Part shown: piece after piece, positions 3,080 through 34,019 of the stretch | Numbering within the stretch: position 1 is the stretch's first letter | Layout of the letters: each line of letters starts with the position of its first letter | Source: a virus | Taxonomy: Duplodnaviria; Heunggongvirae; Uroviricota; Caudoviricetes | Length of the DNA: 64,000 nucleotides | Reading direction: 5' to 3' (one strand) | IMG/VR virus record: IMGVR_UViG_3300014205_000201 | The notes under the pieces: model-generated | What the model was told of the DNA's origin: nothing | Database searches by the model: none | What the model saw: the letters and a program-made list of their open reading frames with translations, nothing else | Program-made: the position numbers and the translations under genes

Positions 3080-3685
3080 TTAACTTTTACCTTTGACATG
3101 CGCACATAATTTTAATATCAATTTCAAAGTACGCAATGCCTCCATTGGTGAAGCTTTGCTAACCCCTAATTTACGTGCCTCAAAAACAAAAGGATACTCC
3201 ACAACCGAACAGTATTTTTTACTACGAACAAGCAAGTCTAGCCCGAACTTAAACCCATAAACATCAATCGGATACAACAAAAACACCTGGCGCTTCACCA
3301 GGATAAAACCACTCATATTATCCTTAATCTCAAGACGAAATAATACTTGAGCAAATAAACAGTAAACTCGGCTTATCATTTCTCGACTAAAAGAATCCTG
3401 TGTGCCGCCGCCTTTGATATAGCGTGAACCAATAACAATGTCATGGCCATTCCTAGCTAACCATAACATTTCAGAGATATATTTTGGGTTGTGGCTTCCG
3501 TCTGAATCGCAAACTAAAATGTATTCGCCCTTAGATCTTTTAACCCCACACATAACAGCATACCCCAATCCTATCTCAGATTGAATCAATATCTCAAAAG
3601 GCTCAGAAACACATCGACTAATTTCAGCCATCAATGTCGGAAGAAAAGGCTCTGACCCGAAGCATGGAATAATAATAGAAAGCAT
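3080..3685 (-). CDS. family-2 glycosyltransferase (dolichyl-phosphate sugar transferase-like)
   Basis: N-term IIIPCFG..., DxD-like ILVCDSDGSH, GSRY; GT-A fold signature. Confidence 0.65.
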   Translation of the reverse strand: MLSIIIPCFGSEPFLPTLMAEISRCVSEPFEILIQSEIGLGYAVMCGVKRSKGEYILVCDSDGSHNPKYISEMLWLARNGHDIVIGSRYIKGGGTQDSFSREMISRVYCLFAQVLFRLEIKDNMSGFILVKRQVFLLYPIDVYGFKFGLDLLVRSKKYCSVVEYPFVFEARKLGVSKASPMEALRTLKLILKLCAHVKGKS

Positions 3686-5484: not shown

Positions 5485-5878
5485 TAAGGCACCAACTTAC
5501 TTTGTGGAATACGCTGGAGACAACTACAATGCCGATTTTTCTTTCGGCCATGTTTAAGGCATTTATGTTTCTCGATATATTCTCTATTTAACCAAAACTG
5601 GTTTTTCTGACAGAAGTACCCGAAGTAATTAATAACTCTAGCCAACAGGACACCAATATATTATCTATCCCTAACTTGTTAAAAGCTTTGCCATCAACTA
5701 TCAGCATATAACAATGTGATAATACAGATACTTGAACCTACACAAACTAACCCAATGGAAAGCAAATTAATTGTTAAAAAAAGAATTATATCACAACCGC
5801 CAATAAATATCATAAGTAAACTAAAAAAGAGAATTATGTTAATGATTTGATTTTTAACGGCTTGCTGCATTCATATTT

Positions 5879-8027: not shown

Positions 8028-8336
8028 TTATGACTCCCTTTGTTTGTCACCAGTTACAGCCAAACTGTCAGTTGTTGGCATGTGATCAATGAGATACTGA
8101 AATTTCTTACCCTCGCCCATTCCATACTGATAACCAATAAGGAATATTGTGTGTTCGCATAAAGCGCTCGAAGTAAGCAGTATCTTTCCAAAGTTTTCAC
8201 CTATCTTGATCTTGTCATCGTTTTCTGAAGATACAATTTTGAAAAAAGTATTTTGTAGTAAATCAAGTTTTGCTTTATCTGAACAAGCGTTTTTCTTGTT
8301 GTTATTGGCACAGCATTGGTCACACATTTTATTCAC
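8028..8336 (-). CDS. Cys-rich hypothetical protein (102 aa; CDQCC...C)
   Basis: co-directional packing. Confidence 0.45.
   Translation of the reverse strand: MNKMCDQCCANNNKKNACSDKAKLDLLQNTFFKIVSSENDDKIKIGENFGKILLTSSALCEHTIFLIGYQYGMGEGKKFQYLIDHMPTTDSLAVTGDKQRES
8047..8071. promoter_or_regulatory. IR motif copy (tcaccagttacagccaaactgtcag)
   Basis: then SD AAGGGAG and the ATG at 8025 on the minus strand. Confidence 0.55.
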
Positions 8337-11749: not shown

Positions 11750-12042
11750 TATTTATTAACCTCATCGGTTTTTAGTTGCTGGCTAGCCGAATTAATCAGT
11801 AAATAAAGTGCTACACAAAACATGCAAACAGATAGCACAGGAACAGAAGCAGAAACGTAAATCAACATCACTAACTCTGTAGTTTCAACTGATGTACCTT
11901 GAACACCATTCCAAGTAACAATAAAGCTAGTAATCAGTATTATTGAGCATCCCAAAGCAATTGCAACTAAAATTAATTTGAGGAGATTCTTTTTATCCAA
12001 AGAAGCCATCTCCCAAAAATATATCTTGCAGATCTTTAGCAA
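11749..12042 (-). CDS. small membrane protein (97 aa)
   Basis: TM helices. Confidence 0.4.
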   Translation of the reverse strand: MLKICKIYFWEMASLDKKNLLKLILVAIALGCSIILITSFIVTWNGVQGTSVETTELVMLIYVSASVPVLSVCMFCVALYLLINSASQQLKTDEVNK

Positions 12043-12235
12043 ACTCTTTACCGGTACGTTTACCAGGTAATGTCTTCTGATATGCTAAGTCAGCTTGAGA
12101 ATTAAACAACTCAGGAAAATGTTTAGTGCCAAATGTAGAATTATATATAGCCACAATCTCTATGAAACTGTGGTCTTGTTTTTCCCAGAGTTTAATTGCT
12201 GTTATTCTAGCTTGCCGGTTAGTATCTTCACTCAT
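11993..12235 (-). CDS. hypothetical protein (80 aa)
   Basis: overlaps its neighbour; the start is uncertain. Confidence 0.35.
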   Translation of the reverse strand: MSEDTNRQARITAIKLWEKQDHSFIEIVAIYNSTFGTKHFPELFNSQADLAYQKTLPGKRTGKEFAKDLQDIFLGDGFFG

Positions 12236-12720
12236 TATTTTTCTTCCTCTTTATTACTGACTTTTGGGACACATTTGGCAGTTGATGTTACCCAAAGCTT
12301 ATTCTTGTTTTTATTCTTCATGAACTTTTCACGCATCGTAACAACAGCCTTCATATCTCGATGGATCTTAGCCCAAGACTCGTTATGGCATGCAGACGAA
12401 TTTGAACCGCTAATGTCATAATTCTTCTCATCACTAAAGCAATAGATAGAATGTTTACCCTCTGTTTCAGCCCAATGCAATGTTGCATCGCAGAACCATA
12501 TATCCCACTCAGGAAAAGTGTGGGCTTTATAATAATCTTTGAAAGGCATATTAACGAATACTTTACCACAGGTTTTGCAGAACACTAAATAGTGTTTACC
12601 CTCCATGGCTTGCTCAATTAGTTTTTCCATCTCAGGTTGCTTATTGCTAAGAATGAAAGCAGCCATCTCGTTTTGGTTAGCTCGTTTTAAGTCTGTGATT
12701 AGTTTATCTTTTGCGCTCAT
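12235..12720 (-). CDS. hypothetical protein with CxxC (161 aa)
   Basis: SD cctcc(rc) at 12731-12735 and an IR motif upstream. Confidence 0.5.
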   Translation of the reverse strand: MSAKDKLITDLKRANQNEMAAFILSNKQPEMEKLIEQAMEGKHYLVFCKTCGKVFVNMPFKDYYKAHTFPEWDIWFCDATLHWAETEGKHSIYCFSDEKNYDISGSNSSACHNESWAKIHRDMKAVVTMREKFMKNKNKNKLWVTSTAKCVPKVSNKEEEK

Positions 12721-12739
12721 TGTTTCTTTTCCTCCACAC

Positions 12740-12764
12740 TACCAGATGGATACAAACTGTCAAA
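12740..12764. promoter_or_regulatory. IR motif copy (taccagatggatacaaactgtcaaa)
   Basis: SD at 12731-12735, then the start at 12720. Confidence 0.5.
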
Positions 12765-12784
12765 TATTAAAAATGCTAAAATCA

Positions 12785-13033
12785 TTACCATTCAACCTCG
12801 ATTTTCTCAATTGTAGTAATAGCAGAAATAAAACATATTGCGCTAGGCAGAGTTAATATCAAAGCGGTTTGGTTCAATTTATCTGATAAACCTATAGAGG
12901 CTTTAGATTGAGTAAAGCCACTTCCGCTAATTGTATTATAGTCAGCAATCCAAACTGCCGAAATTGCAAGCGCTAACACTATCCCAAATAGTATCAGAGA
13001 GATACATAGTAATATCAAAGTTATTTTCTTCAT
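12785..13033 (-). CDS. small membrane protein (82 aa)
   Basis: TM; SD + IR motif upstream. Confidence 0.45.
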   Translation of the reverse strand: MKKITLILLCISLILFGIVLALAISAVWIADYNTISGSGFTQSKASIGLSDKLNQTALILTLPSAICFISAITTIEKIEVEW

Positions 13034-20241: not shown

Positions 20242-20742
20242 ATGACATATTTTGATATTATTCGGCTAGCCGCCCTAATTGCAGTAATTGGGTATGCCGC
20301 CTGGCAAGATCACACAGTAACCATAAAGTTTGAACATAATGGTAAAATGGTTGAAGGTGGAGAAGTTAGAAATAAAACATGGCTTTATGCTCCTTTTGGG
20401 TTATGTTTAACATTTATTGCAATTTATCTTAATCCAGAAACCGCTTTAATGTCATTTCTCAGTATGGGTGCAACAATTGTTTTAGTATTAATTCTTGATC
20501 GCGTCGGCGGCATGGGAGGCGCTGATGGTAAAGCATTTCTTACAATAGCAGCCAGTATGCCACTTACACCCTTCAATATACAATTGCCAATAATGATGTA
20601 TCCGCTAGCCGTGATTTTAGTGTCAGCATTGCTGTCATTTGGGGTTTCATCAATAAAGCAGAAAAATGTGCCTATGCGTGATCGTCATGTACGATTTTTG
20701 CCTTACGTGTTTGTCAGTTTATTCATAGCATTGCTGATATGA
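20242..20742 (+). CDS. polytopic membrane protein; candidate A24-family prepilin/preflagellin peptidase (TadV/CpaA or FlaK-like)
   Basis: GGMGGADGKAFL resembles the GxGD/GGAD catalytic-Asp motif; an earlier Asp at WQDHT; size about 166 aa with 5 TM. Confidence 0.35.
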   Translation: MTYFDIIRLAALIAVIGYAAWQDHTVTIKFEHNGKMVEGGEVRNKTWLYAPFGLCLTFIAIYLNPETALMSFLSMGATIVLVLILDRVGGMGGADGKAFLTIAASMPLTPFNIQLPIMMYPLAVILVSALLSFGVSSIKQKNVPMRDRHVRFLPYVFVSLFIALLI

Positions 20743-22152: not shown

Positions 22153-22947
22153 TTGTTATGGCAAGCCTTATATTTCTACTTTAACAAAACATATAATATG
22201 CCAATTATAAAAAATCAACGCATAGATGAAGTCCCAACAGAAGATTGGCTAACATACATAGACCTAGCGTCAAAAATAGATTATTCACAAGCCAAACAAA
22301 TACCTCCCTTTCAAAGATGGCTTTGTGCAGTATTAGCCATAGACTGGTTAACTGGAAAAAGAATAAATGAAATACTACGCTTAAAACGCAAAGACATTAC
22401 ATTCACAAAAAGCGATATAAAAATAAAATTTATGGTAGGAAAAAAACGAGCTAGAGGAAGCCCAATAGAATTACAACCTTACCAAAAAATAAGAACAATT
22501 GAACACAAAGCTATACCATACATAATCAGCTATTTAGATGATTATGACAAAAGATTAGAAAGCGATCCTGAAATAGCCCAATACATCAAAAATATGGGCA
22601 ACTATATTTTTCCCTGTCCATCTAAGCCCAGAACTAAAGTTGTTAAAACAAAATTTACAAATGGCAAAGGAGAACAAGAAGTTAGAGCTTATACCTATGA
22701 ACAGATAGGTGGATACATGAAAGAAGAAAACGCATTCTTCTGGCTACAAAAAATTAACAACCAGTTACCTCAAGAACGCCGGATTTACTTTCACTATGGG
22801 CGGCACTCAATTGGGTTACATATGGCATACCAAGGAAAAAGCCCGTACAAGATAGCGGAAATATTAGATGAAACAGTTGATGCTGCATTACAGTACACTA
22901 AGCATTCATCTGGTTACGATAATGATTGGCGAAATGAAAAGGAGTAA
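22153..22947 (+). CDS. tyrosine recombinase/integrase-like protein (264 aa)
   Basis: box I Arg (GKRINEILRLKRKDI); HYGRHS (HxxR); catalytic Tyr context LQYTKH. Confidence 0.55.
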   Translation: MLWQALYFYFNKTYNMPIIKNQRIDEVPTEDWLTYIDLASKIDYSQAKQIPPFQRWLCAVLAIDWLTGKRINEILRLKRKDITFTKSDIKIKFMVGKKRARGSPIELQPYQKIRTIEHKAIPYIISYLDDYDKRLESDPEIAQYIKNMGNYIFPCPSKPRTKVVKTKFTNGKGEQEVRAYTYEQIGGYMKEENAFFWLQKINNQLPQERRIYFHYGRHSIGLHMAYQGKSPYKIAEILDETVDAALQYTKHSSGYDNDWRNEKE

Positions 22948-22952
22948 AACTA

Positions 22953-23966
22953 ATGTCATCACCCATAAATGTCGATGTAAAAATACAAACTGAATTAAGA
23001 AAACAAAAAATTGCCAAATTACTAAAAACAGCAACACAAATGGGGGTAGTTCATACAGGATGGTCAGCTATAGATTATATGCGATATGCAGCATTGCACC
23101 ATGGGTGGGAATCAACCTGTATTTCAGGATCTAAAGGCACACTAAAATCAAACCTACTCTTACAACACGGATTAGCCTTATGGCAAGATTTCGATAAAGT
23201 CCTTGAACATTTTATTACAGATCAAGACAGACTCTTCGAGTTAATCCAATATGCCATAGATAACAAAAAATGTTTACCCTGGGTAGGCGTAGATGACATA
23301 GCAATGATTTTCCCAAAAAGCCTATACTTCAGTAAACGAAAACTATATAGCGAATTACAAAGCTGCTGGGAAGCAGTCCGCACAGTTTTCGCAAACTTCG
23401 AGTTTAGCTGCGTCATTAAAAGAAAAGTCGCTAGCTTTATACTAGAAGACATAACCTCCGACATAAGATGTTACAAACCTGTTTTCTTAGATCATGCAGA
23501 TGGAACTAGCGATTGCATAAAAAGTCACTATAGTTATAGACGCTGGCTCTGGTTAACAAACTATAAAGATCCAACCAGAGATTTAGCAAAATTAATCACA
23601 GTTGAAGAGATACCTTTTCCAGCTACTCCCGAAGCATTGATAATTGATCCTGAGTTAAAGTCAGGCACGTTCTATTCAGGAGGCAAAACTTACAAGGGTG
23701 AGGAGTTCTTTAGGGAACATGCATGTTTAGCGGGCATCGACACCACGCGCTTTAAAAAGTATTGGGAATCAAGATTAGATATAGCTGAGAAGGGCTTCAG
23801 TAGATTAACTGCTATCATGGCCGAAGATAAAGAGAAGATCAGTAAACAAACTAAACTATCTAAAGAAGATAAAGCGGAGATTAATAGAGTCAATGCTTTA
23901 AAACGATGGCACCCCGAAGAAGTACACATTCCAGAGTCTGAGTACGATAAACGTAAACCTGCATGA
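22953..23966 (+). CDS. hypothetical protein (337 aa)
   Basis: CLPWVGVDDIAMIF is Walker-B-like; no clear P-loop. Confidence 0.5.
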   Translation: MSSPINVDVKIQTELRKQKIAKLLKTATQMGVVHTGWSAIDYMRYAALHHGWESTCISGSKGTLKSNLLLQHGLALWQDFDKVLEHFITDQDRLFELIQYAIDNKKCLPWVGVDDIAMIFPKSLYFSKRKLYSELQSCWEAVRTVFANFEFSCVIKRKVASFILEDITSDIRCYKPVFLDHADGTSDCIKSHYSYRRWLWLTNYKDPTRDLAKLITVEEIPFPATPEALIIDPELKSGTFYSGGKTYKGEEFFREHACLAGIDTTRFKKYWESRLDIAEKGFSRLTAIMAEDKEKISKQTKLSKEDKAEINRVNALKRWHPEEVHIPESEYDKRKPA

Positions 23967-24651: not shown

Positions 24652-24662
24652 CAAACGGAGAC
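24652..24662 (+). promoter_or_regulatory. CAAACGGAGAC box, copy 2, before the ATG at 24672
   Basis: the extended GGAGACTAAAC also occurs at the hammerhead 2 cleavage product. Confidence 0.45.
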
Positions 24663-24671
24663 TAAACAATC

Positions 24672-24815
24672 ATGAACCAAAAAAGCAATATCGTAAAAAG
24701 CGAAACTCTCCCAATAAAATTATTCTATAACCCCAAGATGGTGACAGAAAAAGAATTAATCCGCGCCATTGAACACTTATATGGTGTCAGTGGTTGGGTC
24801 AAGGAGAGCGTTTAA
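24672..24815 (+). CDS. 47-aa protein (MNQKSNIVKSETLPIKLFYNPKMVTEKELIRAIEHLYGVSGWVKESV)
   Basis: CAAACGGAGACTAAAC box then ATG. Confidence 0.5.
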   Translation: MNQKSNIVKSETLPIKLFYNPKMVTEKELIRAIEHLYGVSGWVKESV

Positions 24816-25132: not shown

Positions 25133-25175
25133 CTGACAATTATCTAAGAACTGGCGAATAATGGAGAAATAAAAA

Positions 25176-25710: not shown

Positions 25711-25803
25711 ATGAAATGTACATATTGCGGTAAAATAATGAAAAAAGAAAAAGGGAAAAATAAGTATATTTGCTCTTGTGGAACTTGGGGTGAAAAACTA
25801 TAA
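25711..25803 (+). CDS. 30-aa zinc-ribbon mini-protein (MKCTYCGKIMKKEKGKNKYICSCGTWGEKL)
   Basis: hand-translated; ends 23 nt before hammerhead 1. Confidence 0.4.
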   Translation: MKCTYCGKIMKKEKGKNKYICSCGTWGEKL

Positions 25804-25805
25804 TT

Positions 25806-25831
25806 TGCCAGTTAAGCTTAAACAGTCAATC
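25806..25831. promoter_or_regulatory. IR motif copy (ttgccagttaagcttaaacagtcaatc) overlapping the stem I 5' strand of hammerhead 1
   Basis: CCAGTT-N9-AACAGTCA. Confidence 0.5.
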
Positions 25832-25901
25832 ACCCCGATGAGCTAGCGCAAATCTAGCGAAACACGCCAAGATTATTTTATTGGTGTGTCGGTGACGTTG
25901 A
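25826..25901 (+). ncRNA. hammerhead ribozyme motif 1 (type I topology); the core has C at position 4 (CCGAUGA)
   Basis: Stem I 5' strand UCAAUCACC. Core CCGAUGA. Stem II GCUAG-CGCAAAU-CUAGC. GAAA. Stem III ACACGCCAA / UUGGUGUGU (9 bp including one G-U) with a 10-nt loop. Cleavage triplet GUC with C17 at 25890. Stem I 3' strand GGUGA-(CG bulge)-UUGA. Confidence 0.55.
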
Positions 25902-25943
25902 GATGTAAAGGACGCTAAACCCCCATTGAGGTGTAAAATAAAA

Positions 25944-26004
25944 CTCCACTGATGAGCTAGCGAGATCCTAGCGAAATACTGCACACCGTGGTATATGGAG
26001 ACTA
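25944..26004 (+). ncRNA. hammerhead ribozyme motif 2 (type I); canonical CUGAUGA core
   Basis: Stem I CUCCA / UGGAG. Stem II GCUAG-CGAGAUC-CUAGC (same helix as copy 1). GAAA. Stem III AUACUGC / GUGGUAU (7 bp, two G-U) with loop ACACC. Cleavage after UA, at 25995. Stems I and III covary completely with copy 1. Confidence 0.7.
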
Positions 26005-26011
26005 AACCGAA

Positions 26012-26344
26012 ATGATGCAAGGCGATAACATACCAAAACTCTATAAATGCGTTTATCCGCCGGAACTAGGCGGAAGGACATTAAAACAAGACAAGCTAGC
26101 AGTAGGTGAAAAATTTAATAAGGTTGGCTCATCCTTAGAAAAACATTTCCGAGATTTTGCAGAGAAAAACTTAGCGTTAATGCCTAATGCAAATTATTCG
26201 GCAGCGCGGTTTTTTAAACAAGAAATAAAGGGGAACGGTTGGGCTAGGGGAATGTATTGGAATAAGTCTTATCTATTTATCCCTATTAATGGGGCTAAGC
26301 CTAATGATTGGAGCGACTATTATTTAATTAGCTTTTTTTCTTAG
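26012..26344 (+). CDS. hypothetical protein (110 aa)
   Basis: ATG lies 16 nt downstream of the hammerhead 2 cleavage site; the post-cleavage 5' end UGGAGACUAAACC carries the SD. Confidence 0.5.
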   Translation: MMQGDNIPKLYKCVYPPELGGRTLKQDKLAVGEKFNKVGSSLEKHFRDFAEKNLALMPNANYSAARFFKQEIKGNGWARGMYWNKSYLFIPINGAKPNDWSDYYLISFFS

Positions 26345-26353
26345 GTGGCTAAT

Positions 26354-26548
26354 ATGAAAAATCTTAAAGTTGTTGGTTCGGCCTCAAGCAAAGAAGCATT
26401 AACCGCACTAATCAATAAAAAACTTTATTCGGTTAACTGGATTATAACGAAAGACAATAAACCATTTAATACCAAACTAAACAAATATCTAGAAGGTTGT
26501 TTTATTCGCCAAAAAAATAACCGTTGGCAATTACTAAAAGCAAATTAA
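26354..26548 (+). CDS. hypothetical protein (64 aa); the track start at 26345 is a GTG
   Basis: SD AGGTGG upstream of the ATG at 26354. Confidence 0.45.
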   Translation: MKNLKVVGSASSKEALTALINKKLYSVNWIITKDNKPFNTKLNKYLEGCFIRQKNNRWQLLKAN

Positions 26549-26566
26549 ATTAACAAGGTGCTAAAA

Positions 26567-26854
26567 ATGGAAACAAAAACAAAACTTCAATCTATAACAA
26601 GACAAGGCGATATTATCCTTTTAGACTTGTTATGTTTTGACCCCAATACTAAAGTATGGAATCTTGACGCAATAGCGACCCGACACGCTCAACAATATTT
26701 AGCAGCTAGAAGCCCCTTTTTAAAAGTTAAAAAGTGGGCAAAAATAGATGTACCCGGATTAGCGCAACCTTCCGACTGGCTTCAAAACTTACCAAATTTA
26801 GCACCGGCATATATCGCTAAGTTTGCCTATTGCCTACAAACTAATAAAATTTGA
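26567..26854 (+). CDS. hypothetical protein (95 aa); the track start at 26558 is a GTG
   Basis: SD AAGGTG. Confidence 0.45.
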   Translation: METKTKLQSITRQGDIILLDLLCFDPNTKVWNLDAIATRHAQQYLAARSPFLKVKKWAKIDVPGLAQPSDWLQNLPNLAPAYIAKFAYCLQTNKI

Positions 26855-27006
26855 AGAGTTAAAATACTGACTGTTAAACCTGAACTGTCAAGGCCAACGA
26901 TCAACCAATATTTTTTTATTTGTTTTTCTAAGTTTTTCCATTAAAAACATGTTGTACATTTTGTGCAAAGCTTTATTAGCAACCTTTAACACTATAAGAG
27001 TATAAC

Positions 27007-27017
27007 CAAACGGAGAC
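27007..27017 (+). promoter_or_regulatory. CAAACGGAGAC box, copy 3, before the ATG at 27027
   Basis: all three copies are followed by ATGAAC or ATGGGC. Confidence 0.45.
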
Positions 27018-27026
27018 AAACCAGAA

Positions 27027-27875
27027 ATGAACTACCGATATGAGAACGGATATGAAAACCATCAAGTAATTAATCCAACAAAAATTAACCTATCCGAATT
27101 AAAAACCGATAAAGACGTTATAGTAACATATGCAAAACTAAGTGAAGCTAGACATTTCCAAGACAGCAAAGCAACATACCCAGATCACAAACCTTATGAG
27201 AAAACACACGGCCAAATAGCCGCCGACTTAGAAGCGCAAATAGTAGATGATGTCAGACTTCGATTAGAAAAAGCTGGTTGGCATGTTCACATATTCGCTA
27301 ATGGTTCAGTACATGGCAACTGTAATGTTGAAATGTACCTTCATGCCTTCGCTGGAATGCCTGAAGTTTCAGAGGTTCCCTTTTCAAGTAATAGCAATTT
27401 AGAGCTAACAGAAACAGAGTTATTCAAAGAAGACGGTGCACTAAGAAGCAAAGAAGAAACATTAAGCCTTCTCAGAGAAAGAGTTGGAGAACCAACTCTA
27501 AATCTTAAAACGATGCTAGAGGAAAATGACATTGAAGAGGAAACCAAAAACATTATCGAGGGCATAATGGCAGCCGAAAACCTTACCGAACTGCATGAAC
27601 TAGATGAGGGAAACAGAACAATGCGAAGCGGTGAAAAGGAATTTACTTGGAGAAGAAACGATACAGAGGCACAAGAAGAAGCACAGCAATATTTAGATGA
27701 CGATGACGAACTTTGGAAAATGGCGGTTGAAGCGGGAAATACAACTTTAGGAAAAGATGACTGGAACAAAATGGTTATAGATAATGACGGTTGGGAATCT
27801 TTACTTTGCCACTATGATGGAACCTCTAACACATTAGACGATGAAAACGGAACGGTTTATTGGAGAACCAATTAA
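27027..27875 (+). CDS. acidic protein (282 aa, D/E-rich)
   Basis: CAAACGGAGACAAAC box upstream. Confidence 0.5.
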   Translation: MNYRYENGYENHQVINPTKINLSELKTDKDVIVTYAKLSEARHFQDSKATYPDHKPYEKTHGQIAADLEAQIVDDVRLRLEKAGWHVHIFANGSVHGNCNVEMYLHAFAGMPEVSEVPFSSNSNLELTETELFKEDGALRSKEETLSLLRERVGEPTLNLKTMLEENDIEEETKNIIEGIMAAENLTELHELDEGNRTMRSGEKEFTWRRNDTEAQEEAQQYLDDDDELWKMAVEAGNTTLGKDDWNKMVIDNDGWESLLCHYDGTSNTLDDENGTVYWRTN

Positions 27876-27891
27876 ACCCTTTTTCCATCAT

Positions 27892-27918
27892 TCACCAGTT
27901 ACGACTAAACAGTCAGAA
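27892..27918. promoter_or_regulatory. IR motif copy (tcaccagttacgactaaacagtcagaa)
   Basis: followed by SD AAAGGAAA and the ATG at 27931. Confidence 0.5.
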
Positions 27919-27930
27919 GGTAAAAGGAAA

Positions 27931-28095
27931 ATGAAAACAAAATTTAAACTGACAGAAGAAAAAGCAAAAAAACTAATCTCTGCTATAAACTGCGAAATAT
28001 CAGAATATAGCGGAGTTGTATCAATGGCTCCTTATGAAGAGCTAAAAGAAGAACTAGAAAACTGGATTAAATCAAGAGGTGGAAAACTTGACTAA
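27931..28095 (+). CDS. 54-aa protein (MKTKFKLTEEKAKKLISAINCE...); the track ORF 27841-28095 is N-extended
   Basis: IR motif + SD arrangement upstream. Confidence 0.45.
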   Translation: MKTKFKLTEEKAKKLISAINCEISEYSGVVSMAPYEELKEELENWIKSRGGKLD

Positions 28096-28330
28096 ATTAG
28101 AAGAGACACAAGCGCAGATAAAAGAGTTAATGGCTAACGCTCAAGAAGACATCTTAAAGAACTATGTTGAAAAAGCGTTAACCTCTGGAGCCTTAAGCGA
28201 AGACGTAACCAAAGAAGGCAATTATCTGCTAGCGAAGTTTATCATAACTGCATACTTTGACAAAGGCCCATATTCACCCCTAAACACCACACATAAAAAA
28301 GAACTAAAAAACTTAGAGTGTTTCATTTAA
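28079..28330 (+). CDS. hypothetical protein (83 aa); GTG start
   Basis: co-directional packing. Confidence 0.4.
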   Translation: MENLTKLEETQAQIKELMANAQEDILKNYVEKALTSGALSEDVTKEGNYLLAKFIITAYFDKGPYSPLNTTHKKELKNLECFI

Positions 28331-28336
28331 CATCAA

Positions 28337-28360
28337 TCGCCAGTTAAATCTTAATCGGTG
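28337..28360. promoter_or_regulatory. IR motif variant (tcgccagttaaatcttaatcggtg)
   Basis: 7 nt upstream of the ATG at 28368. Confidence 0.45.
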
Positions 28361-28367
28361 AAAAACT

Positions 28368-28583
28368 ATGATGCAAGATGAACTAATCGCACTTTACAAA
28401 AGAATTGTTGCAGAGTTGGAAAGTAACATATCCTACATGCAGACAATCAAAACCTCAAAAAATGAATGGGACTTACGGAAGGTAAACGAGTTATCAGCCG
28501 AAAACAGGGTGTTACTTCGAGAAAGAAATGACCTCGGAGAAATACTGTGGCATAGCGGAATAGATACCCGAACACTTCCATAA
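28368..28583 (+). CDS. hypothetical coiled-coil protein (71 aa)
   Basis: co-directional packing. Confidence 0.45.
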   Translation: MMQDELIALYKRIVAELESNISYMQTIKTSKNEWDLRKVNELSAENRVLLRERNDLGEILWHSGIDTRTLP

Positions 28584-28585
28584 TT

Positions 28586-28612
28586 CGCCAGTTTAAATCT
28601 AATAGTCAATCT
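28586..28612. promoter_or_regulatory. IR motif variant (tcgccagtttaaatctaatagtcaatc)
   Basis: upstream of SD GGAGA and the ATG at 28622. Confidence 0.45.
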
Positions 28613-28621
28613 ATGGAGATA

Positions 28622-28765
28622 ATGAAAAATGACAAAGAAAAAACAGATAGCTATCAAAGCAATAGAAGAATTAAAAGAATATTGCGAGGGGTATTTTCAT
28701 CCATCTTGGGTGAATACTTTAGAGCGATTAGAGAGCATGATAAAAGACTATAATGAACCACTATA
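28622..28765 (+). CDS. 47-aa protein (MKNDKEKQIAIKAIEELKEYCEGYFHPSW...)
   Basis: hand-translated. Confidence 0.4.
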
Positions 28766-28766
28766 A

Positions 28767-28790
28767 ACTGCCAGTATAACATCAGTGGTG
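28767..28790. promoter_or_regulatory. IR motif variant (ctgccagtataacatcagtggtgt)
   Basis: 6 nt upstream of the ATG at 28796. Confidence 0.45.
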
Positions 28791-29395
28791 TCTAACATGC
28801 AGAACCTAATCTTAGTCATAAAATATGACCCCGAAACAACCAACCAAGAAAAACTCAGAGACAACATAACCAACTTAGAAGGCGTGGAGTATGTCAACTA
28901 AAAAAATAAAAGAAAAAATGTTCAAAGAAATCTTGAACGCGGAAACCGGCGATTATATCACCCAGGCACAGACAGCATCCGCAATACATAAAGAAGGATG
29001 GTGATTAACATGCAGAAAGAAAAACCCAGCTTAGAAGAAATCTTAATACAAGAAGACTACCCAGAACAAGCAAAATACTTTGAAAATAAGAAAGCTAGTA
29101 AGAACTAAAAATCACCAAGTCGAACATGGTTTAATGTCTCCTAGCGTGAAACTGTGACATACCCCGAAACTTAGCGTTTGGGTACATAAAAGAATGAAAG
29201 AAAAAAGGAAATGTGAGGTGAAAAATATGGTAATGAAACAAGAGGAAAACCCCTTCTTTGACTTCGGAGAGGAAGATGTACAAGAAATAGATGACTGGAT
29301 TTGGAACGATTGGTAGGTTCCTGATGAGTTCCTGGAATGGAACGAAATACCCAAGTTATTTATTGGGTATAGAACCAAAATGGAGATAAAACCAA

Positions 29396-30244
29396 ATGCT
29401 ACAACTTAGCGTTAACCCAAGAGAAACATTAACGGCTAAAGTCTGGGAAACATGGCAAAAAGCCGGATACACAACCCAGCCCCACAGCCTAACCTGGATA
29501 GAACTAGACAACCTTACAGGCTTCTACCTAAAAACCTGCACAGCGAGAAACATAGATTACCAAGCCTTCGATTTTTTGAGCTTACTTGATTCTAAACTTA
29601 ACTACTATGAAAATCAATCCGCTATAGATGAAGCATTAGCTGGATCCTTAACTGAAGAAGAAGCCTATAAACGATATGAAGCAGACATGAATAACCAAGA
29701 ATTAAAAGAAGAAATAAAACAAATCAACGAAATCCAAGCAACAGTAATAAACAAAATAGAACAAATCCCAAACATAATACAGCTAATAGATGCCCTTAAT
29801 CAAAGCCAAAGTTTTCAATCACTCGGTAAAGCCTTATCTCCACTTATCAACCCATCAAGCACACCAATAAAAACAATGACTAATGATGGCGACCCCAATA
29901 AACCTGCACACTACACATACCATAATCAAGGGGCCGAATACTGCAAATATTGTGGAATAAAAATAGATGCCGATACCGTTAAATGTCCTAACTGTGGAGC
30001 ACCAATAAAAGAAGATAAGCCAGTAACTTTATCACAGTTAATACCAGAATGCTTCAAACCAAAAAAACCAGTAAGCTTCTTAGACGCATTCGCCGGTGCG
30101 ATGGTTACATTAATCTGGCTAGCCGTAACCTATGGAGCCTTAACCAGCGGCACAATAACATGGATAACAGTTGTTGCAGTAGCGTTTTGGTGGGCACTAT
30201 TCGTAGTAGTATTTAGAATAGTAGTTGGAGGCATACTGAATTGA
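29396..30244 (+). CDS. coiled-coil protein with a zinc ribbon (CKYCG...CPNCG) and a C-terminal TM anchor (282 aa)
   Basis: co-directional packing. Confidence 0.5.
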   Translation: MLQLSVNPRETLTAKVWETWQKAGYTTQPHSLTWIELDNLTGFYLKTCTARNIDYQAFDFLSLLDSKLNYYENQSAIDEALAGSLTEEEAYKRYEADMNNQELKEEIKQINEIQATVINKIEQIPNIIQLIDALNQSQSFQSLGKALSPLINPSSTPIKTMTNDGDPNKPAHYTYHNQGAEYCKYCGIKIDADTVKCPNCGAPIKEDKPVTLSQLIPECFKPKKPVSFLDAFAGAMVTLIWLAVTYGALTSGTITWITVVAVAFWWALFVVVFRIVVGGILN

Positions 30245-31306: not shown

Positions 31307-32188
31307 ATGTCAGAACAAACTTGGATAGGCTACAAAGATTTAGAACCCATCAGAAGACTCCGAAATGAGGGTAGAGAACTTATAGGAAAAACCCTAACCC
31401 TTACAGAGAAAAGAGATGGTGAAAACGTATCAACTCGTTTAGTAAACGCAAGCATCCCCATAGGTATGGTAAACCTACAAATTAGTTCACACAATCAAGA
31501 AGAAGCAGCACCCGACATAATCAACCGATTCAAAGCGACCAAAGAATACAACAAAGTCAAAACATTACTCGAAACTGAACTAACATTTCATCACAACTAT
31601 ATTCTCTATGGAGAACTTCTAAAAGAAGTAGGCCCAACACGGATAGAACCCAGACGAAAAAAACTTCAATGGATATTATTCGATGCTTGGGATTGCGAAC
31701 TAAAACGTTACATCAGCTACACACAGTTATACCAGCTAGCATACCATTACAAGATTCCAATCGTCAAAGCAGTAGACTTCTTTATTCCTACCAGTGAAGA
31801 GGAGCTAGCTAGCAAAATCGCGGCCTTAATGAAATGGTGCAAACGCCACCGGCGAGAAGGCATTGTAGGTAAAGACTATGAGAACCAAGTGTTCTTTAAA
31901 GAAAAGATAGACTTACCAAAACTGCCCAAGCTACCCAGAGATCCACAAATCCAATTACCATCAATGACACAGGAAAAGATAATTCGAGCGCTACAACATG
32001 CATACGATGAAGTGGGAGAAACTAACTGGAAAAACGTAAAAGTAGCTATGCCAATCGTAGCAAAGCATTTCTCGATAGAAGCAAAAGAACATAACTTTAG
32101 CACACCCAAAAACATGTTCCAACTATGGATGAACACCCCAACAGAACAAATTAAACCGTTGCCAGTTGAATCAGAAAAGTCAACATAA
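31307..32188 (+). CDS. ATP-dependent polynucleotide ligase (RNA or minimal DNA ligase; covalent nucleotidyltransferase superfamily)
   Basis: motif I TEKRDGENV (KxDG); motif III-like ILYGELL; motif IV EGIVGK; motif V-like KEK; 293 aa. Confidence 0.55.
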   Translation: MSEQTWIGYKDLEPIRRLRNEGRELIGKTLTLTEKRDGENVSTRLVNASIPIGMVNLQISSHNQEEAAPDIINRFKATKEYNKVKTLLETELTFHHNYILYGELLKEVGPTRIEPRRKKLQWILFDAWDCELKRYISYTQLYQLAYHYKIPIVKAVDFFIPTSEEELASKIAALMKWCKRHRREGIVGKDYENQVFFKEKIDLPKLPKLPRDPQIQLPSMTQEKIIRALQHAYDEVGETNWKNVKVAMPIVAKHFSIEAKEHNFSTPKNMFQLWMNTPTEQIKPLPVESEKST

Positions 32189-33690: not shown

Positions 33691-34019
33691 TGCCTAACAC
33701 CTATGTTAAAGTTATCCGTGATTGGAAAGCATCCGGTGGTCCTGATGTCTATTGTCCTGTTGATGTAGCCACTGGTAAAATGTATGTGGGTTTAAGTCTT
33801 ATCGGTTTTGTTCCTAAAGGTGGGATAATTGTGGGGGAGTTTGATGAAAAGACCGATACGCTCACGTTAAATAAACCAAAAGAAACAGTGGCGGGGGTAG
33901 TTGAGAAGAGGGACAACACCCTAAGTCAAAGGGAAGGCGTGGGTTCGACTCCCATCCCCCGACCATCTTCGATTAACAATCAGAAACCAACAGTTAGTCA
34001 ACGACCACAAAATATATAA
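33687..34019 (+). CDS. hypothetical protein (110 aa); its 3' third overlaps a tRNA-like element
   Basis: SD GGAGGAT. Confidence 0.4.
   Translation: MMPNTYVKVIRDWKASGGPDVYCPVDVATGKMYVGLSLIGFVPKGGIIVGEFDEKTDTLTLNKPKETVAGVVEKRDNTLSQREGVGSTPIPRPSSINNQKPTVSQRPQNI
33891..33963 (+). tRNA. tRNA-Asp(GUC)-like 73-nt element (degenerate): full cloverleaf by standard numbering but with G1-A72 and A27-A43 mismatches and A33 instead of U33
   Basis: Acceptor GCGGGGG / CCCCCGA. D arm GTTG-AGAAGAGGGA-CAAC. Anticodon arm CCCT-AAGTCAA-AGGG. T arm GTGGG-TTCGACT-CCCAT. Discriminator C then CA. Confidence 0.3.

Follow-up and report, generated by a model that had tools for sequence, protein, structure and literature searches.

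The window analysed here, a stretch of 64,000 nucleotides (nt) from the Caudoviricetes virus record IMGVR_UViG_3300014205_000201, carries on its plus strand two neighbouring motifs, HH1 and HH2, which are probably genuine type-I hammerhead ribozymes in a plus-strand polycistronic RNA, where they would cut the operon into units. A first-pass annotation, made from the letters of the sequence, had described both copies as type-I hammerheads with all parts in order, and this reading stands, every part having been found where it had been placed. HH1 reads TCACC / CCGATGA / GCTAG-CGCAAAT-CTAGC / GAA / ACACGCCAA-GATTATTTTA-TTGGTGTGT / C / GGTGA and HH2 reads CTCCA / CTGATGA / GCTAG-CGAGATC-CTAGC / GAA / ATACTGC-ACACC-GTGGTAT / A / TGGAG; stem II is identical in the two copies and is closed in each by a 7-nt loop, as had been noted. 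A third type-I hammerhead, HH3, lies 3.4 kb downstream of this pair and reads GGUUC CUGAUGA GUUCC-UGGAAU-GGAAC GAA AUACCCAA..UUGGGUAU A, with the cut placed before the closing GAACC and with stems I, II and III of 5, 5 and 8 base pairs (bp). In all three ribozymes stem II is followed by GAAA, U16.1 closes stem III, an unpaired A lies immediately 5' of stem I, and position 17 is never G (C25890, A25995 and A29371). The predicted cuts of HH1 and HH2 have 105 nt between them. HH2 and HH3 carry the core CUGAUGA, while HH1 has C in place of U at core position 4 (hereafter C4 and U4), and we class HH1 as a core variant and not as a canonical hammerhead member.

A strict descriptor (core CYGANGA, GAAA, H at position 17 and stems of at least 5, 5 and 7 bp), applied to both strands of the whole window, retrieved three motifs, all on the plus strand, and none in 1000 dinucleotide shuffles; for a much laxer descriptor the chance expectation was 0.16 to 0.38 per window. 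We further used a covariance model, R1, for which 17 hammerheads were taken from contigs, metagenomic or viral, other than the window, and which was run with filters off. It scored HH1 at 44.4 bits (E 1.6e-11), HH3 at 31.8 bits (E 1.8e-7) and HH2 at 60.1 bits (E 1.4e-16), the last score being partly circular because the seeds of R1 had been fetched by patterns derived from the HH2 core and stem II; this circularity affects neither the stem I and stem III terms of the model nor the scores of HH1 and HH3. After the three ribozymes, the best match of R1 in the window reached 16.4 bits. The minimum free energy (MFE) structure given by RNAfold for 25800-26030 shows both three-way junctions.

Public collections hold a wider family of such intercistronic hammerheads. 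A pattern confined to the core, stem II and GAAA (CTGATGAGCTAGC-N5-9-CTAGCGAAA) retrieved 23 loci (1 viral, 1 genomic and 21 metagenomic), and all 23 are complete type-I hammerheads, with a stem III hairpin closed by A15.1-U16.1 and a base other than G at position 17. Stem I at these loci is mostly of exactly 5 bp, an invariant unpaired A lies just 5' of it, and the consensus of loop II is CGARAYU, which HH2 matches. Such features could belong to a tertiary contact between stem I and loop II, of the sort that makes cleavage fast. When the core and loop II were fixed and nothing else, 16 loci were found, 13 of them complete hammerheads in which stem II takes five different sequences and thus covaries; the remaining three represent one chance coding match. 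In the family alignment A3, made by MAFFT in replacement of A1 (which contained HH2) and A2 (which was misaligned), pairing holds in 98.7% of cells and drops to 24-34% in slid controls; double changes are present at 11 of 14 pairs. The position of the ribozymes relative to genes is also recurrent: across 35 unique members, the upstream open reading frame (ORF) mostly ends in TAA, its stop codon abuts stem I (at a distance of 0 nt in about 15), and a Shine-Dalgarno sequence (SD) and start codon follow 20-39 nt past the cut. HH3 and the downstream side of HH2 match this geometry. Hammerheads of this kind are often clustered, with 66 same-strand adjacent pairs over all collected loci; five lie within 3 kb in L018, two flank a 65-aa gene in L009, and in both loci hammerhead and leader recur near-verbatim at successive gene boundaries.

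Other features of the collected loci can be noted beside this family. Large same-strand arrays of type-I hammerheads are present in L246 (up to about nine), in L197 and L018 (five each) and in L180, at a spacing of 230-700 nt and with a ribozyme before almost every small gene. Three hammerheads with a GCUAG stem II and a long loop II, at L007 2782-2843 (a Brunnivagina elsteri scaffold), L021 1219-1305 (minus strand) and L017 1470-1541 (minus strand), show complementarity between that loop and the stem III loop (CCUGAC and GUCAGG in L007, for instance) and may be variants with a loop II-loop III pseudoknot. A type-III C4 hammerhead in L055 (about 3380-3520, plus strand) stands directly upstream of a tRNA-like sequence (GTATCTTAGCTCAGTTGGTTAGAGC...). 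At Rfam gathering score, L030 contains two group I introns (11878-12101 and 12694-12946, plus strand) and L035 a type-II hammerhead (5683-5747, minus strand) on the same strand as the type-I hammerhead of that contig.

Covariation had been claimed in the first-pass annotation from the different stems I and III of HH1 and HH2, which two paralogous copies with different stems do not in themselves show, the support coming instead from family alignment A3 and from HH3; the same annotation had set covariation in homologous elements as a test beforehand, and here the result is favourable for stems II and III of HH3, while HH1 and HH2 are without orthologues. Homologues of the Zn-ribbon gene that follows HH3 (29396-30244) are 46-76% identical to it, and a hammerhead lies at the place equivalent to HH3 in L046, L047 and L050, with a degenerate copy in L045 and no hammerhead there in L048 and L049. 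Among these orthologues stem I is kept (GGUUC/GAACC), stem II covaries (GUUCC:GGAAC, GUUCU:AGAAC and GUCUU:AAGAC) and stem III covaries over at least three different sequences. Two of them, in L046 and L045, read CCGAUGA, the latter with a broken stem II in addition to its C4 core. In the window, the TAG stop of a 29-aa ORF (29227-29316) shares 1 nt with stem I of HH3, whose predicted cut, after A29371, lies 24 nt before the ATG at 29396.

The C4 core of HH1 is not peculiar to the window. Over all collected loci, which were selected by pattern, so that this and other motif frequencies reflect biased sampling, C4 occurs in 26 of 200 unique well-formed hammerhead motifs and U in the other 174. 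Pattern scans of IMG/VR gave 23 unique, well-formed hammerheads, of types I and III, that combine C4 with a GARA-type loop, one further C4 hammerhead with a GCAAA loop, and 15 U4 hammerheads with the GCAAA-type loop II of HH1. In the twenty type-I C4 motifs, of which 19 have C17, each position of the stems is filled by several types of pair, and C4 hammerheads occupy the same gene-flanking arrays as U4 ribozymes. Stems I and III of HH1 are similar to those of a C4 sub-lineage present in L097, L100, L128 and L132, (A)UCACC-CCGAUGA...ACACCC..GGGUGU-C-GGUGGU. In the open-access literature we found no paper describing natural CCGAUGA hammerheads; the substitution U4C "considerably decreases activity in vitro", yet viroid infectivity in vivo was supported by it (PMC3088659). 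The caution of the first-pass annotation, in which C4 may lower or abolish the activity of HH1, was reasonable. Since C4 recurs in well-formed phage hammerheads, HH1 is likelier to be functional than that annotation implied, and we consider it a good deal more credible as a working, possibly slower, variant than as a dead copy.

Type-I examples of the C4 core are present in L097, L100, L102, L104, L108-L110, L116, L120 and L121, as well as in L128, L132, L140, L142, L145, L146 and L148, and type-III examples in L055, L095, L107, L113, L127 and L130. Most C4 hammerheads of phage contigs have a UGARAAUU loop II and a GUC site. A covariation of C4 with a GCAAA loop II, both of which are shared by HH1 and L046, was considered and rejected, GCAAA being found with U4 in 15 hammerheads and with C4 in one more; C4 goes mostly with GARA loops.

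The SD of the gene that starts at 26012 (gene 26012) sits within the 3' strand of HH2 stem I, and HH2 is the only family member in which we saw this. The RNA 3' of the HH2 cut begins UGGAGACUAAACCGAA-AUG, its start codon 16 nt past the cut; both the cut positions proposed earlier (25890 and 25995) and the geometry of the SD relative to the ATG agree with the sequence. A ribosome-binding region of the form GGAGAC(T)AAAC-N4-5-ATG is common to at least three genes, at 24657-24680, 25997-26020 and 27004-27032 (repeats D6 and D14). Upstream, HH1 has no cistron of its own because the 48-nt gap that separates it from HH2 contains no gene, and this gap is the smallest of the 66 same-strand adjacent pairs, the next-closest pair having its cuts 228 nt apart and a 172-nt gap with a small gene inside. 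If both ribozymes cut, the fragment 25891-25995, made of the spacer and of HH2 up to A25995, would be released as an RNA of 105 nt.

We hypothesise that the ribozymes fold during transcription and cleave their own strand, after A25995 in HH2, after A29371 in HH3 and after C25890 in HH1, which is probably slower because of its C4 core. Each upstream RNA would then end in a compact ribozyme body with a 2',3'-cyclic phosphate, and the 5'-OH of each downstream mRNA would lie ahead of the start codon by 16 nt at HH2 and by 24 nt at HH3. At HH2, the cut followed by loss of the 5-bp stem I would expose the GGAG of gene 26012. The resulting units would be the upstream genes, the block 26012-29316 with about ten small genes, and the genes from 29396 onward, so that the stability and translation of each unit could be uncoupled from those of its neighbours. 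Catalytic activity, a polycistronic transcript and effects on mRNA stability and translation are what we infer from this arrangement. All three ribozymes share the strand of the surrounding genes, a plus-strand block running from about 20.2 to 37.7 kb, there is no plus-strand terminator-like site between 24229 and 33580, and HH2 and HH3 bound the block 26012-29316.

Several results weigh against genuine, working hammerheads at this locus. At gathering score, Rfam 15 detects no hammerhead in the window (families checked: RF00163, RF00008, RF02276, RF02275, RF02277 and RF03152), and the Rfam search proposed in the first-pass annotation as a check returned sub-threshold matches only: Hammerhead_3 on HH3 (29296-29353; 27.9 bits against a gathering score of 48.5), Hammerhead_II over 25855-25966 (17.6 bits against 37) and RAGATH-1 in the HH1/HH2 region (17.2 bits against 56.3). 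Some of the sub-threshold matches, obtained in E-value mode, fall in a permuted register that fails in stem I or at H17. In ten other loci of the intercistronic family, too, all type-I hammerheads escape the Rfam models; the limit lies in the sensitivity of the models, and a gathering-level score does not define the ribozyme class. The 231-nt region has an MFE no lower than that of shuffles (z = -1.09), but for a ribozyme so small this measure is not informative. A search through the flanking genes gave no orthologues of HH1 or HH2: gene 26012 has only two diverged homologues, at 85% and 50% identity, neither with a hammerhead upstream, a relative of the 164-aa gene (L001) has no hammerhead either, and the syntenic 79-kb relative L050 lacks both HH1 and HH2. 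The pair is thus dispensable for gene 26012. To these points can be added the partial circularity of the R1 score of HH2, the lack of a gene of its own downstream of HH1, unlike in every other pair examined, and the role of bacterial and phage hammerheads in general, which was still "largely elusive" in a 2019 review (PMC6765202).

Part of this evidence could also be explained if only HH2 (and HH3) works, HH1 being the decaying relic of a hammerhead-gene-hammerhead cassette whose gene was deleted and whose remnant would be the 48-nt spacer with its ATGTAA, in which case no 105-nt RNA would be made. HH1 is the only ribozyme without a downstream gene, has the shortest spacing of the 66 pairs and carries C4 where 174 of 200 motifs have U, a change that lowers activity in vitro (PMC3088659); moreover, the C4 orthologue of HH3 in L045 has a broken stem II, suggesting decay, and L050 is without the pair. 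Set against this, HH1 has three perfect stems of 5, 5 and 9 bp and the preferred GUC site, its stems I and III resemble the C4 sub-lineage described above, and its GCAAA-type loop II belongs to a normal class with 15 U4 examples. C4 hammerheads are also numerous, with covarying stems and normal gene-flanking positions, and a U4C viroid variant works in vivo (PMC3088659). We therefore regard a relic HH1 as possible, yet on balance unlikely. Patchy presence in close relatives (HH3 lost in L048 and L049 and degenerate in L045, HH1 and HH2 lineage-specific) and the near-verbatim repetition of hammerhead and leader at successive gene boundaries in L009 and L018 would also be expected if the hammerheads were selfish or neutral cassette-boundary modules, moving with small genes by recombination and with no selectable benefit. 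This is improbable, given that the position of HH3 is kept over 46-76% protein identity with compensatory changes in its stems, and that the tight, recurrent geometry of stop codon, stem I and SD suggests integration with gene expression.

The spacing of HH1 and HH2 raises another question, namely whether the excised RNA 25891-25995 could be the point of the pair, as a small RNA or as one circularised or re-ligated by an RtcB-type ligase of the host or by the ligase of the element, by analogy with circles of the viroid-like or retrozyme kind or with an 'intron' bounded by ribozymes. The HH1-HH2 pair alone, among the 66, encloses no gene, and an RNA-ligase-family gene (PF09414) lies in the same plus-strand block. 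PF09414-type ligases require 5'-phosphate and 3'-OH ends, and no kinase or phosphatase is present among the window proteins scanned. Moreover, the ligase gene has a tRNA gene as neighbour, and phage RNA ligases usually serve in tRNA repair; any link of this ligase with the hammerhead products is speculative. In favour of such a role, tandem ribozyme pairs enclosing RNAs of 186-399 nt are known in RNA viruses (bioRxiv 10.1101/2024.05.16.594327), and clustered phage hammerheads have been considered as a possible source of spliced or circular RNAs, but when Perreault et al. sought them they found none (PMC3088659). The spacer itself has no Rfam match and no conserved relatives. On balance we consider an RNA-centred role of the pair very unlikely. 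In a related and hardly more than conjectural scenario, the gene-less pair may be a device in which HH2 acts as a cleavage-gated ribosome-binding site and the slower HH1 makes a second, delayed cut that releases the 105-nt RNA, which, with its 5'-OH and 2',3'-cyclic phosphate, could persist as a small RNA or circularise; if true, this would constitute a protein-free timer for expression of the gene block 26012-29316. Finally, it is scarcely credible that the motifs are chance look-alikes, a permuted type-II or type-III hammerhead, or part of a minus-strand 64-aa ORF (25826-26020). The sub-threshold Rfam matches to Hammerhead_II (17.6 bits) and Hammerhead_3 (27.9 bits) would speak for such a reading, and the minus-strand ORF exists mechanically. 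Yet none of 1000 shuffles reaches the observed architecture, and the R1 scores and the 23 complete family loci contradict it; a type-II reading across HH1 and HH2 would need GGUGA:CUCCA as stem I, which do not pair, a type-III reading of HH3 would place G at position 17, and the minus-strand ORF has a TTG start, no family match and is not called on public contigs. Genuine type-I hammerheads that divide a polycistronic RNA thus remain our preferred reading of the locus.

The coordinates of the ribozymes and of neighbouring features are collected in the table.

Table. Hammerhead parts and surrounding features of the window.
Feature	Position	Strand	Details
HH1, type-I hammerhead with variant core	25830..25895	+	Basis: sequence, descriptor, R1, MFE fold
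HH1 stem I	25830-25834 : 25891-25895		TCACC : GGTGA, 5 bp
HH1 core CCGATGA	25835-25841		C at position 4 = base 25836
HH1 stem II	25842-25846 : 25854-25858		GCTAG : CTAGC, 5 bp; 7-nt loop CGCAAAT
HH1 GAA	25859-25861
HH1 stem III	25862-25870 : 25881-25889		ACACGCCAA : TTGGTGTGT, 9 bp, one G-U
HH1 predicted cleavage site	25890		GUC, C17
HH1-HH2 spacer, 48 nt	25896..25943	+	No gene; only start-stop ATGTAA 25903-25908
HH2, canonical type-I hammerhead	25944..26000	+	Basis: sequence, descriptor, R1
HH2 stem I	25944-25948 : 25996-26000		CTCCA : TGGAG, 5 bp
HH2 core CTGATGA (CUGAUGA)	25949-25955
HH2 stem II hairpin	25956-25972		GCTAG / CTAGC, 5 bp; loop CGAGATC
HH2 GAA	25973-25975
HH2 stem III (hairpin 25976-25994)	25976-25982 : 25988-25994		ATACTGC : GTGGTAT, 7 bp, two G-U
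HH2 predicted cut	after 25995		A17
SD and ATG region	25997..26014	+	SD GGAG 25997-26000, 11-nt spacer, ATG 26012; basis: sequence
110-aa ORF (gene 26012)	26012-26344	+	Called gene in public assemblies
HH3, third type-I hammerhead	29316..29376	+	Outside the first-pass annotation; basis: descriptor scan, R1
HH3 core CUGAUGA	29321-29327
Mini-ORF, 30 aa, CxxC..CxC	25711..25803	+	TAA stop 26 nt before HH1; no Pfam family
Palindromic intergenic motif copy	25800..25829		..RCCAGTT-N8-AACWGTCA..; repeat families D1, D2, I1, I7
Prepilin-peptidase-like gene	20242-20742
Integrase-family gene (Phage_integrase)	22153-22947
DnaA-like PHROG	22953-23966
RNA-ligase-family gene (PF09414, E 3.7e-13)	31307-32188	+	Same block as the ribozymes
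tRNA-Asp(GTC) gene	33891-33964	+
HNH and LAGLIDADG endonucleases	elsewhere in window

The element that carries these ribozymes is an uncharacterised phage-like mobile element seen in metagenomic assemblies only, and megablast and tblastn searches against deposited phages and plasmids gave no match to it. HIP1 is absent from the window, which has no cyanobacterial signature, although one member of the hammerhead family lies in a Brunnivagina genome. An overlap of HH1 with a palindromic inverted-repeat motif had been proposed; the copy in question lies directly 5' of HH1 and outside the ribozyme, which it only adjoins. This intergenic palindrome, roughly (CTCCAT-N5-)RCCAGTT-N8-AACTGKYR(-N5-ATGGAG), has about 20 copies in the window on both strands, for example at 8050, 9187, 15014, 19784, 24135, 25133-25165, 25800-25829, 27887-27915, 28331-28361 and 28580-28608, and further at 32162, 37871, 38460/38478, 42298 and 52035/52053, with CCAGTT observed 68 times against about 26 expected. 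On one strand the palindrome resembles TTGACT-18-AATTAT, and a role as promoter is doubtful because most copies in the plus-strand block would point antisense; an RNA hairpin or an operator for a dimeric protein are alternatives. The NheI palindrome GCTAGC, which HH1 and HH2 carry as their stem II sequence, has 29 copies in the window against about 7.7 expected, and GATC is rarer than expected (105 against about 219).

The locus offers a compact test case, in which a ribozyme with the SD in its stem I, a natural C4 variant 105 nt upstream of it, and an HH3 that is kept, lost or degenerate in relatives can be studied together, and it does not settle the function of phage and bacterial hammerheads. 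Because Rfam models miss the type-I intercistronic subfamily at curated thresholds, routine annotation will overlook it, and descriptor searches that demand U4 will under-count natural hammerheads, since C4 is common. In synthetic constructs, RiboJ-type insulators, derived from sTRSV, place a hammerhead before the ribosome-binding site, where it trims the upstream RNA and makes downstream expression independent of it. The role that we propose for the window ribozymes is similar, RiboJ being engineered on a type-III-derived scaffold with an added hairpin and the window ribozymes being natural and of type I.

Among natural systems, the first-pass annotation was right that hammerheads occur in phage and mobile elements: clusters of prophage hammerheads near integrases, covering all three topologies and including core variants, have been on record since 2011; they show cleavage in vitro, and the processing of polycistronic RNA was suggested as their role (PMC3088659). 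The window resembles them in having several same-strand copies that flank genes or short blocks of unknown function near an integrase-family gene, in a presumed polycistronic transcript, with the same core and three stems and the same proposed role; it differs in the gene-less HH1-HH2 pair, in the SD within HH2 stem I, in the C4 of HH1 and in that all three ribozymes fall below the Rfam gathering score. In haloviruses HF1 and HF2 the mapped 5' end of the mRNA coincides with the cut of the hammerhead HHphage, which precedes a start codon by 13 nt (PMC3088659), a distance comparable to the 16 and 24 nt found here, although HHphage is an unusual variant that needs high Mg2+ and sits at the transcript start in an archaeal virus, whereas the window ribozymes are standard type-I and intercistronic. 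In the 5' untranslated regions of chrysovirids and fusarivirids, cleavage by type-I hammerheads is required for translation initiation (bioRxiv 10.1101/2024.05.16.594327), and these share with the window the position just upstream of ORFs and the tandem pairs that enclose small RNAs; they belong to eukaryotic RNA viruses with cap-independent translation and enclose 186-399 nt, in contrast to 105 nt here, and no homology is implied. The U4C viroid variant carries the same substitution as HH1 and is a single variant, whereas C4 is found here in at least 26 DNA-encoded phage and metagenomic hammerheads. Altogether, as judged from sequence comparison, it is well supported that the window ribozymes are new examples of a kind of phage hammerhead known since 2011, to which the gene-less pair, the SD in stem I, the recurrent C4 and the blind spot of Rfam are modest additions and not a new category.

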